Part shown: positions 1-28,382 of the stretch, piece by piece | How positions within the stretch are numbered: the first letter of the stretch is position 1 | Layout: every line of letters begins with the position of its first letter | Source of the DNA: Candidatus Helarchaeota ASGARD archaeon Hel_GB_B | Lineage (GTDB): Archaea > Asgardarchaeota > Lokiarchaeia > Helarchaeales > HEL-GB-B | Assembly (NCBI GenBank): GCA_005191425.1 | Contig: SUPR01000042.1 | Location: 1 to 28,382, forward strand | DNA: 28,382 bases | Direction of reading: 5' to 3' | The notes under the pieces: model-generated | What the model saw: the letters and a program-made list of their open reading frames with translations, nothing else | Database searches by the model: none | What the model was told of the DNA's origin: nothing | Translations under genes and position numbers: made by a program

Positions 1-468
1 GTTTGGAGACATGGCGACTATATTGTTTATCATAGTGATACAAAAGGGATTACATTTTATGGTAGGTCAGATTCTGTTTTAAAACCATCAGGAGTCCGAA
101 TTGGAACATCTGAAATTTATAATATTGTTGAAGAATTAAACGAAATATCAGACAGCCTGGTTATTGGCCAAAATTGGAAGGGCGATCAACGTATAATTTT
201 ATTTGTCAAACTTGCACCGAATTACAAATTAACGGAAGATTTAAAGTTAAAAATCAAAAAGACATTGCGAAAAAATGCATCACCCAGACATGTCCCGGCA
301 TTAATTTTTGAGGTACCTGACATACCTTATACTTTTAGTATGAAAAAAGTCGAAAGTGCCATCACCAACTTGGTAAATGGTAGACCAATTTTAAATCGGG
401 GCGCATTGAATAATCCCGAATCGCTTGATTACTTTAAAAAATTATTACCCGAACTCCAAAAAGAATAA
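1..468 (+). CDS. Acetoacetate--CoA ligase (acetoacetyl-CoA synthetase), C-terminal part; gene begins before the window
   Basis: Frame +1 is open from base 1, extending the 265..468 ORF: VWRHGDYIVYHSDTKGITFYGRSDSVLKPSGVRIGTSEIY...SPRHVPALIFEVPDIPYTFSMKKVE...GALNNPESLDYF. WRHGD, GRSDxxLKPSGVRIGTSEIY and SPRHVP...PYTxSxKKVE are typical of this AMP-forming ligase subfamily. Confidence 0.92.
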   Translation, partial: VWRHGDYIVYHSDTKGITFYGRSDSVLKPSGVRIGTSEIYNIVEELNEISDSLVIGQNWKGDQRIILFVKLAPNYKLTEDLKLKIKKTLRKNASPRHVPALIFEVPDIPYTFSMKKVESAITNLVNGRPILNRGALNNPESLDYFKKLLPELQKE

Positions 469-1034: not shown

Positions 1035-2309
1035 TTGACAGAAACTAGAAAAGTTTGTATTATTGGAGGGAATACAACACCATTTGATTATAATAATTAT
1101 CATATGACAATTGAAGGAATGGCAGCTAATGTAATGCTCGAAACTATGGACGATTTACCTGAATTTAATTTAAGAGATATTGATTTTGTAATATATTCTC
1201 ATTTTTCAGTCCATTTTGGAAAACAATTATGCCCTGAATGGATAATACATGACCATTTAGGATTAGTCGGTGTTCCCCATTTTAGGGTTGAAAATGGAGG
1301 AAATACAGGTGGTTCAGCTCTTTATGCTGCTTATAGCATTGTAAAATCAGGCATTGCTGATGTCGTACCAGTAATTGGCTGGGAAACAATGGATAATGTA
1401 TCTCAGAGTCAAGGTGCAGAATTTATTGCTATTGCTGCAGACACTCGATACGAATTATTGGTTGGTGGAATATATCCAATTTTTTATGCTGCTGGCGCTT
1501 TAAAATGGATGAAAGAAAATAAATTCAAGGAAGAAGATTTTGCTCTTATTGGAATGAAAAATCGAAATAATGCAATGGATAATCCAAAAGCTCAATGGTA
1601 TAGAAATGAGCATAAATATTTAACTGTAGATGATGTAATGAATTCTCGATTAATTGCATATCCATTAAAAAAATATGATTGCTGTTTAATGTCAAGAGGA
1701 CTAGCTATAGTCTTAGTTTGTTCAGAAGAATATGCAAAAAAGGTTGCTAAGGATTCCGGATATATTACGATTGATGGAGCTGGACTCTCAAGTTGTACTA
1801 TTAGAGCTGGAGATAGGACTTCATTTCCAGGTTGGAATGAACGATATGGTAAGGGTTATCCAGACCTAACTGAATTCGCTGCTTGTAGAAACGCTGCAGA
1901 ACGGTGCTTCAAACAAGCTGGCATTCCATGGAAGGACTCATATAAATACATTGATGTCGCTGAAATTCATGATGCATTTTCTTCATCTGAAGCTCAAATT
2001 TACAAGGCATTAGGTTGGGCTGATGAAAATAATATTGCAGAATTCGTACGAAATAGAGAAACTTTTATGGGGGGTTCTATTCCGACTAATCCTGGAGGTG
2101 GACTTATGGGATATGGACACCCAGTCGGTGCAACTGGACTTATGAGTACTGTAGAAGTTTTTTATCAGTTAACTGGAAAAATTCCAGAGAAACATTTAAG
2201 CAAAAAAAGTGAAGTACCTGATGCCAGAGTTGGGTTGGTAAATTCACATGCTGGGACAGGTACTAGTATCTCAAATTTTATTTTAAGAACAGCCGAAGGA
2301 GGTAGATAA
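1035..2309 (+). CDS. SCP2/archaeal-type thiolase-fold protein lacking the catalytic cysteines (Ltp-like, possible aldolase)
   Basis: HDAF and GGLMGYGHPVGATG motifs and NAMDNPKAQ...YDCCLMSRG are present. The nucleophile loop reads RVENGGNTGG instead of RVExACASG. The gene abuts a DUF35 gene. Confidence 0.9.
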   Translation: MTETRKVCIIGGNTTPFDYNNYHMTIEGMAANVMLETMDDLPEFNLRDIDFVIYSHFSVHFGKQLCPEWIIHDHLGLVGVPHFRVENGGNTGGSALYAAYSIVKSGIADVVPVIGWETMDNVSQSQGAEFIAIAADTRYELLVGGIYPIFYAAGALKWMKENKFKEEDFALIGMKNRNNAMDNPKAQWYRNEHKYLTVDDVMNSRLIAYPLKKYDCCLMSRGLAIVLVCSEEYAKKVAKDSGYITIDGAGLSSCTIRAGDRTSFPGWNERYGKGYPDLTEFAACRNAAERCFKQAGIPWKDSYKYIDVAEIHDAFSSSEAQIYKALGWADENNIAEFVRNRETFMGGSIPTNPGGGLMGYGHPVGATGLMSTVEVFYQLTGKIPEKHLSKKSEVPDARVGLVNSHAGTGTSISNFILRTAEGGR

Positions 2310-26202: not shown

Positions 26203-26754
26203 TTAAATTATATTCTTATTTAGGCTATTATTTTTCCGCACTTTTAAAAAGTAAAATAGTCCAATACAGCCAATTAGTCCAAAAATCAAGTAGACAATTT
26301 GAAATCCTGGAATACCATAGAAAATCGAAATATCCAAATAAAATGATGCATCACCAGTACCACTAAATCTTTTAACGCGGATGTAATAATATCCAGAAAA
26401 GGAACAATATGCACCACAAGTATCCGCAGTTCCAGTGTTTGCCGAACTATCAATTAATGATTGACTTGGAGAATATAACCTAAGATCAAGGTCAAAACTT
26501 GAAGAGTAAGTTAGGATCACTTTTAAAAAGTGATTAGAACTACAATATATTTTATAATATGCATAATCGTCTGAACTATAAAGAATGTCGGAGTGAGTTC
26601 CAGTATAAAGGATTTCTGCAGAACTAAAATCATCCCCATAGCCATTTGAAATAGGTATCATATATAAAATGGGAAATACGATAAATAACAATGTTATAAT
26701 GAAAAAGATATTAATTTTTGTATGAATTCTTTTTAACATTTTAGCCAGCCACAT
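26203..26754 (-). CDS. Small surface protein: signal peptide + single PPC (pre-peptidase C-terminal) domain + IPGF-TM-basic sorting tail
   Basis: DDYAYYKI...LTYSSSFDLDLRLYSPSQSLIDSS...SGYYYIRVKRFSG...FYLDI, then IPGFQIVYLIFGLIGCIGLFYFLKVRK. Confidence 0.8.
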   Translation of the reverse strand: MWLAKMLKRIHTKINIFFIITLLFIVFPILYMIPISNGYGDDFSSAEILYTGTHSDILYSSDDYAYYKIYCSSNHFLKVILTYSSSFDLDLRLYSPSQSLIDSSANTGTADTCGAYCSFSGYYYIRVKRFSGTGDASFYLDISIFYGIPGFQIVYLIFGLIGCIGLFYFLKVRKNNSLNKNII

Positions 26755-26955: not shown

Positions 26956-27645
26956 TTGAAACTTGCTAAAATAATAGAAAAAGCCATATTTCTTGAAAGA
27001 CCAAATCGATTTGTGGCTATTGTAGAAATAAACGGAGAAAAGAAAGCAATTCACGTCCCAAATCCAGGAAGAATGAAGGAATTACTTATTCCTGGAAAAG
27101 AAGTTATTTTGAGAAAAGCTAATAACACAAATCGCAAGACCGAATATGATTTACTGGGTATAATTGAGAATGGAGTCCATATTTCGCTTGATTCCAATGC
27201 ACCTAATAAAATTTTTAAAGAAGCAATATTATTAAAAGAGATTAAAGATTTTTGCGATATTATAAGTTTTAAATCGGAAATTAAATATAAAAACAGTAGA
27301 TTGGATTTTTTGCTAATAAATAATCTTGGAAAAATTTACATGGAAATTAAATCGTGTACGCTCGTAGAGGACGGTATTGCGAAATTTCCTGATGCACCCA
27401 CAGTTAGAGGTTTACGACATTTAAATGATTTAGAAGAACTTGTGCTAAATGGAAACAGAAGTGCAATAATTTTTATAATTCAAAGAAATGATGCCAATAG
27501 TTTTATGCCAAATGACAAGACAAACCCGCTATTTGGAAGGAAATTAAGAACTGTTTCAAAGAGTGGAGTGGAAATTTATGCCTATAAATGTAAAGTAAAA
27601 TTACCCTACATTAAACTTGATGAAAAAGTTAAAATTGTTTTATAA
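26956..27645 (+). CDS. sfsA: DNA/RNA nuclease SfsA (sugar fermentation stimulation protein)
   Basis: FLERPNRF, HVPNPGRMKELL, SRLDFLL, MEIKSCTL, FPDAPTVRGLRHL, FIIQRND. Confidence 0.95.
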   Translation: MKLAKIIEKAIFLERPNRFVAIVEINGEKKAIHVPNPGRMKELLIPGKEVILRKANNTNRKTEYDLLGIIENGVHISLDSNAPNKIFKEAILLKEIKDFCDIISFKSEIKYKNSRLDFLLINNLGKIYMEIKSCTLVEDGIAKFPDAPTVRGLRHLNDLEELVLNGNRSAIIFIIQRNDANSFMPNDKTNPLFGRKLRTVSKSGVEIYAYKCKVKLPYIKLDEKVKIVL

Positions 27646-27831
27646 ACGGGAATTCCACCAATTCTAAAATAAATTAACTCTTAATATTAAAATGAATGAC
27701 TTTATAAAAGCCCACATTAAATATAGACAGTTTAGATTTACATTTAAAATTTCAGTAAATTAAAAAGAAGGTTTGATATTAAAAAAATTATAGTTAATGA
27801 CAATGAAATAGTAAAAAAATTTAAAAGAGAA

Positions 27832-28230
27832 TTATATATTAAATATCTCTTTAATATCATTTTGGAGAAAAATATAATCAACAATTAAACCAAAAAAGAC
27901 AAGACAATATAAAATAGAAGCACTAATAATAAGATACCATGCTATTTTTCGTTTTGATTTTAGTGCAAGAATTCCACCACTTAGTGATAAAAAAGCGGTT
28001 ATTTGCGACATTGGGATAAGAAATAAAATTGTAGCATAGATCTGAGCGATTGTAATAAAAGTATCTCCGGCGCAAAATCCACCATTTTTAAAAATTAACT
28101 TTATAACATTGATTATTATAGAAGGATTTTCAATGTGGAGTATTAATATCCCAATACCAAGTACAAATAAAAAAATCCCTGCGATTATATAAAATATTGA
28201 AATCAATTTTATTTTAAACAATGCTTTCAT
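27832..28230 (-). CDS. Small hypothetical membrane protein
   Basis: Three hydrophobic segments; GAGGT SD at 28242-28238, 7 nt before the ATG. Confidence 0.7.
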   Translation of the reverse strand: MKALFKIKLISIFYIIAGIFLFVLGIGILILHIENPSIIINVIKLIFKNGGFCAGDTFITIAQIYATILFLIPMSQITAFLSLSGGILALKSKRKIAWYLIISASILYCLVFFGLIVDYIFLQNDIKEIFNI

Positions 28231-28253
28231 TTTTTAAACCTCGATTTTAATAT

Positions 28254-28328
28254 AACACGTTTCAAGGGGCTACCTTGATATCTGGTTTAACCTGAAACTT
28301 TTTATTAAACCATCATCTAATTCGTGTT
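28254..28328 (-). ncRNA. Structured cis-RNA element, candidate eukaryote-like SECIS (AUGA...GA core) inside a multi-helix junction
   Basis: Minus strand reads AACACG-AATTAG-ATGA-TGGTTTAA-[TAAAAAGTTTCAGG]-TTAAACCA-GA-TA-TCAAGG-[TAGCC]-CCTTGA-AA-CGTGTT. It contains three perfect helices (6, 8 and 6 bp), with ATGA/GA flanking the 8-bp stem. Confidence 0.55.
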
Positions 28329-28344
28329 TTCTTTTTGACTAAAT

Positions 28345-28382
28345 TTATCCTCATCCAGATGGAATAGATGCGTGAAAAATAT
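28345..28382 (-). CDS. 3' end of a gene entering from outside the window; candidate selenoprotein ending ...IFHASIPSG-U-G
   Basis: ATT TTT CAC GCA TCT ATT CCA TCT GGA TGA(28353-28351) GGA TAA(28347-28345). This frame has A/T-ending codons like the rest of the window, unlike the other two frames. A SECIS-like hairpin follows. Confidence 0.45.

Follow-up and report, generated by a model that had tools for sequence, protein, structure and literature searches.

The SECIS element described for Lokiarchaeota (lokiSECIS) consists of AUGA, a 9-bp stem, an 11-nt apical loop whose first five bases favour A and whose last base is G (usually AG), and then GA, and it lies in the 3' UTR close to the stop codon (Mariotti et al. 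2016, PMC4989117). A core variant, AUGA_AA, has been reported for Helarchaeales (Huang, Xiao & Zhang 2024, PMC11227280). The latter study lists seven Asgard selenoprotein families (SelD, FrhA/VhuU, HdrA, FrhD/VhuD, Prx-like, AhpF-N-like and DsbA-like), found by homology to known families, and a 2026 review counts eleven in archaea and mentions no membrane or transmembrane selenoprotein. Penultimate or near-terminal selenocysteine (Sec) in a flexible Gly/Pro-rich tail is found in thioredoxin reductase (TrxR; C-terminal G-C-U-G) and in eukaryotic SelS and SelK, which are also small membrane proteins. The membrane thiol oxidoreductases DsbB and VKOR carry a C-x-x-C motif at the membrane boundary at the start of a transmembrane helix.

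Here, we analyzed a 28,382-nt stretch of DNA (the window), an entire contig of a 3.5-Mb, 28% GC MAG (G000) of a Helarchaeales (Lokiarchaeia, Asgard) archaeon. The contig ends inside an unannotated gene that appears to represent an archaeal selenoprotein family that has not been described. Its product is predicted to be a small membrane protein with three transmembrane helices. The gene holds one well-supported Sec codon (TGA#1) and a probable second one next to its end (TGA#2), followed by an element that fits the lokiSECIS description. It shows no sequence relation to any of the known Asgard selenoproteins, and it was found from the sequence itself rather than by homology to one of them. Like HdrA and FrhD, it probably has more than one Sec codon served by a single 3' UTR element. 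Although there is no direct evidence of translation or selenium incorporation, confidence that this is a selenoprotein gene with a functional-type SECIS is high.

The interrupted reading frame and its homologues

An earlier note, made from the window alone, had proposed a candidate selenoprotein with a penultimate Sec and a SECIS-like hairpin downstream. The sequence is as that note described: minus-strand frame 3 reads I-F-H-A-S-I-P-S-G-TGA-G-TAA, ATGA follows 28 nt later, and the stem TGGTTTAA/TTAAACCA, the A-rich loop and GA are all present. However, since the contig stops inside the gene, the window alone could not decide the reading frame. To recover the gene, an exact-protein look-up of the downstream 132-aa gene was performed, which returned seven contigs from other assemblies that are identical over the overlap and run further upstream. 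In one of these (L010), gene callers leave a 570-nt gap between a PadR gene and the 132-aa gene. The proposed frame is open in that gap for 112 codons apart from two TGAs, and the chance of no TAA or TAG over that length is about 6e-4 from base composition. The other two frames at the contig end close within a few codons upstream in L010, and the opposite strand has no ORF longer than 36 aa. Counted from the ATG at L010:5031, the product has 99 residues, M…LGILTLIWQIIFEIFSITNLHHM-U-PLCAFGY…IPSG-U-G; the gene is otherwise described as encoding about 97 aa. The note had inferred that standard annotation would truncate the protein by two residues, but annotation instead misses the gene or calls fragments of it.

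Table 1 Coordinates of features in the window and at related loci.
Feature	Position	Strand	Remarks
Last 11 codons, plus 2 nt of the preceding codon, of the apparent membrane selenoprotein gene (...N-I-F-H-A-S-I-P-S-G-U-G)	28348-28382	-	Rest of the gene lies beyond the contig end; read from identical contig L010:5031-5330
TGA#2, probable penultimate Sec codon	28351-28353	-	Residue 98 of 99 counted from ATG L010:5031
TAA stop codon	28345-28347	-
Whole SECIS element, three-way structure	28254-28328	-	RNA fold
Basal helix, AACACG with CGTGTT	28328-28323 with 28259-28254	-
AUGA	28313-28316	-	5' half of the kink-turn-like SECIS core
9-bp helix II	28312-28304 with 28291-28283	-
Apical loop AAAAAGUUUCAG	28303-28292	-
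GA	28281-28282	-	3' half of the SECIS core
Side hairpin CAAGG-UAGCC-CCUUG	28277-28263	-
Covariance model R1 hit	28262-28318	-	No non-standard pair
Downstream 132-aa membrane protein gene	27832-28230	-	Probably co-transcribed with the selenoprotein gene
Shine-Dalgarno GAGGT of the 132-aa gene	28242-28238	-
SfsA-family gene	26956-27645	+	No evident link to the operon
183-aa protein with N-terminal and C-terminal hydrophobic segments	26203-26754	-	No evident link to the operon
tRNA-Sec-like gene (G000, outside the window)	C9:14937-~15122		Between SepSecS and the PSTK-like gene
Further three-way SECIS elements (G000, outside the window)	C167:2156-2210, C41:5764-5822, C122:8612-8667		Those on C41 and C122 follow hdrA-like genes
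G003 orthologue, C-terminal codons	L018 (G003:C132) 333-347		CCA-TGA-GGA-ACA-TGA
G005 orthologue	L019 (G005:C10) 1468-1743	-	Extra in-frame TGA
G001-like variant contig	L025 3001-3234		In-frame 48-nt deletion

The upstream TGA#1, which could not be seen in the window and is the main Sec codon, sits in an H-x-U-P-x-C motif. Six-frame searches of related genomes that read through stop codons found the gene in G001 (same genus), G003 and G005 (same order) and G195 (another family of the class), and metagenome contigs L087 and L088 add two more. In all eight loci for which DNA could be read, from two GTDB orders within the class, the first TGA sits at the same column. It is flanked by invariant His(-2), Pro(+1), Cys(+3) and Phe(+5), at 34-55% overall protein identity. 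That pattern is not what a stop codon or a decaying gene would leave. One G001-like metagenome contig (L025) has an in-frame deletion that removes the residues from L-S-I-L-K-H-M-U through P-L-C-A-F-G-Y-T but keeps the C-terminal TGA-GGT-TAA; it may be a natural variant or an assembly artefact. A pattern search of metagenome contigs gave 135 hits and no relative, but the back-translated pattern used a Cys codon where the genes have TGA, so this says nothing about absence.

Most selenoprotein families have Cys homologues. An HMM search of 1.84 billion cluster representatives returned only nine proteins, all of which are fragments or translations that print W at the TGA, and no Cys form at the TGA#1 site (U37) was found among them. 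One distant, longer relative has Y-P-L-S at the site. The printed W raises the possibility that TGA is read as tryptophan (table 4 or 25), as in the ENA gene calls for database proteins P0002, P0003 and P0008-P0010, and in G005 an extra TGA (…RPPI-TGA-KAIV…) sits at the column where the G000, G001 and G003 proteins have Trp. However, for the two hits whose DNA was available, the W calls are translations of short contigs recorded as 'with_TGA=W', table 11 gives long intact ORFs throughout the window and genome, TGA ends 16.5% of long ORFs, and a complete Sec system and SECIS elements are present. A tryptophan reading is therefore considered highly unlikely, and these public gene calls hide selenoproteins as apparently ordinary ORFs. 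The extra TGA of G005 is either a third Sec or a tolerated TGG-to-TGA change that the 3' UTR SECIS rescues.

The 3' UTR element and the Sec machinery

Recoding in this lineage is expected to depend on a SECIS of the type the organism uses. The element in the window reads AUGA-UGGUUUAAU-AAAAAGUUUCAG-GUUAAACCA-GA (the last pair of the stem is U-G), with a loop that starts AAAAA and ends AG, as in the published lokiSECIS, although the loop is 12 nt rather than 11 nt. It continues with a side hairpin and a closing basal helix, giving a three-way shape that is not described for Loki in the sections of the two papers consulted here. In the same genome, the frhD genes with in-frame TGA (contigs C26, C41 and C167) and two hdrA-like genes share this architecture, as do frhD genes of six related genomes. 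At least the two hdrA genes on C41 and C122 have their own element upstream of frhD instead of sharing one. The core variant AUGA_AA is found in the G001 orthologue's element and in the further C41 element. In two frhD genes with two TGAs each (L072 and L080, from G004:C59 and G006:C57), AUGA-AGG-GAC is followed at once by the side hairpin; the main helix II seems to be missing, so their working SECIS may lie elsewhere.

The motif by itself is not beyond chance in this AT-rich genome. A loose descriptor (ATGA, 8-11 bp stem, A-rich loop, GA/AA, side hairpin) finds 45 sites against 26-40 in shuffled genomes, the local fold has a z-score of only -1.5, and an Rfam scan of 27600-28382 at E up to 10 gave no SECIS family hit, as expected since Mariotti et al. 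report that standard tools miss lokiSECIS elements. These results, together with the gap left by gene callers, could suggest that the TGAs are stops in a decayed or non-coding region and that the hairpin is a chance AT-rich stem or an intergenic terminator upstream of the 132-aa gene. To address this, a covariance model (R1) was built from ten FrhD elements only. R1 hits the window's element at 25.2 bits (E 8.4e-6 in 64 kb), and with filters off it is the top hit directly 3' of all eight family genes, at 15-41 bits. A whole-genome search with R1 listed the training elements and one more but not the window's element; only 150 of 6119 first-look candidates were scored, so that list is not complete. 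On the alignment of the eight hits, all 15 pairs change on both sides, 93% of cells are paired, and the covariation score is 0.98 against 0.29 in shuffles. The alignment was fitted to the model, which favours the structure, but slid-partner controls fall to 0.28 or below. Given these results and the protein-level conservation spanning TGA#1, the non-selenoprotein explanation is very unlikely.

The genome is also expected to encode Sec synthesis and insertion. SelB (276 bits) and SepSecS (482 bits) lie side by side on C9, with a PSTK-like gene (156 bits, below the curated cut-off) 13 kb away, and SelD has an in-frame TGA. Rfam (RF01852) and ARAGORN detect no tRNA-Sec in G000, whereas tRNA-Sec scores over the Rfam cut-off in G003, G005 and G195. 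A profile built from the tRNA-Sec genes of these three hits C9:14994-15081 (nhmmer E 4.5e-9). By eye, this tRNA-Sec-like gene has anticodon TCA, a 9-bp acceptor stem (GGCGTTCTG/CAGAACGCC) and what look like three introns (D-arm, anticodon loop and T-loop).

The penultimate TGA and the predicted role of the protein

The penultimate Sec, the specific claim of the earlier note, is the weaker of the two but is considered probable. The tail beyond helix 3 exists only in G000, G001 and G003, is 10-15 aa long, and has no conserved residue except its end, which reads TGA-GGA-TAA, TGA-GGT-TAA and TGA-GGA-ACA-TGA, respectively, although the adjacent UTR has diverged completely. The chance of GGN is about 0.02 per independent lineage at this base composition. 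A near-identical strain (L024) has TGT-GGA-TAA, encoding Cys, which only 2 of the 9 possible single-base changes of TGA would give, and no tail-bearing orthologue has TAA or TAG at that codon. TGA#2 lies 29-35 nt from the AUGA core in all three lineages, and the SECIS starts 22 nt or more after it, so a ribosome at that codon need not have unfolded it.

Alternatively, the gene may be a selenoprotein through U37 only, with TGA#2 as the true stop, a protein ending …IPSG, and GGA-TAA untranslated. In this genome, in 20% of the long ORFs that end in TGA, the next TAA or TAG lies within two codons. G003 would otherwise need UGA as Sec and, two codons later, UGA as stop, 20 nt before the SECIS core. 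In G005 the corresponding first C-terminal TGA aligns with a normal stop in L088 and is probably a stop, and the short-form members (G195, L087 and L088) have no C-terminal Sec at all. A TGA-to-TGT stop-loss adding two residues would also be neutral. On balance, the one-Sec model is possible but unlikely. A more speculative and doubtful reading is that this is an obligately Sec-containing, Asgard-restricted family whose mRNA gives UGA a position-dependent meaning. The lokiSECIS would recode any sufficiently distant in-frame UGA (the motif Sec, the tail Sec and the UGA that replaces a Trp codon in G005), and a UGA 20 nt or less from the core would act as the stop, as in G003. This would give a natural read-out of the minimal UGA-to-SECIS spacing in the archaeal lineage closest to eukaryotes. 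A VhuU motif search, meant to give a short-spacing control, found nothing.

Function is inferred only. The AlphaFold2 model (pLDDT 78) has three long helices with U-P-L-C at the start of helix 2. Lys and Arg residues cluster in the N-terminus and in loop 2, so that by the positive-inside rule both the motif and the tail would face the outside of the membrane. A C/U-x-x-C at a helix N-cap is the usual geometry of thiol oxidoreductases, and we tentatively suggest a selenol/thiol redox centre, possibly including the tail Sec, working like DsbB or VKOR or like the TrxR tail shuttle. However, the only recurrent leads are sub-threshold VKOR matches: PF07884 at 14.3 bits (E 0.046) against a cut-off of 27.5, two of the AFDB cluster rows, and PDB 4nv2 at rank 30. 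There was no DsbB hit, fold searches gave E of 0.3 or worse, and a PDB sequence search gave no significant match. The protein has three helices instead of four and no loop Cys pair, and there is no evidence of quinone use. The conserved His, Sec, Cys and a membrane Glu/Asp would equally suit a soft-metal site, although we consider this alternative less likely.

The likeness to TrxR, SelS and SelK raised in the earlier note is an analogy, and membership of those families is not supported. The tails read S-G-U-G, S-T-U-G and G-P-U-G-T, with no Cys adjacent to the Sec, and there is no flavoprotein domain. SelS and SelK probably have a single helix and a cytosolic tail, whereas here three helices are predicted with the tail outside, and no Pfam match to these families was found at E up to 10. 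The only neighbour conserved in all family loci examined is the downstream membrane protein of about 130 aa; its Cys is not conserved, and a role for that Cys as redox partner was rejected. PadR and ABC-2 exporter neighbours are conserved only in the genus of G000 and G001, and a DsbA-like partner (PF13462) was not found with this Pfam family in the 94% complete MAG.

The family has no Pfam match and is not among the seven Asgard or eleven archaeal selenoprotein families in the 2024 and 2026 papers, so the suggestion in the earlier note of a new family holds against this literature; the recoding mechanism and the SECIS class are already known. As far as these papers go, it would be the first integral-membrane selenoprotein family reported in archaea, with a probable tail Sec in one subclade reminiscent of TrxR, SelS and SelK. 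Asgard selenoproteomes have been catalogued by homology to known families, and a gene with no known relative and no Cys form found, which ordinary gene callers break into fragments, shows that the catalogue is incomplete. A SECIS model for the order finds such genes directly. The family carries 1-3 UGA codons per gene, shows a probable Sec/Cys difference between near-identical strains, and has one orthologue where UGA may serve as both Sec and stop. It therefore offers a way to test how a eukaryote-like 3' UTR SECIS chooses which UGA to recode.
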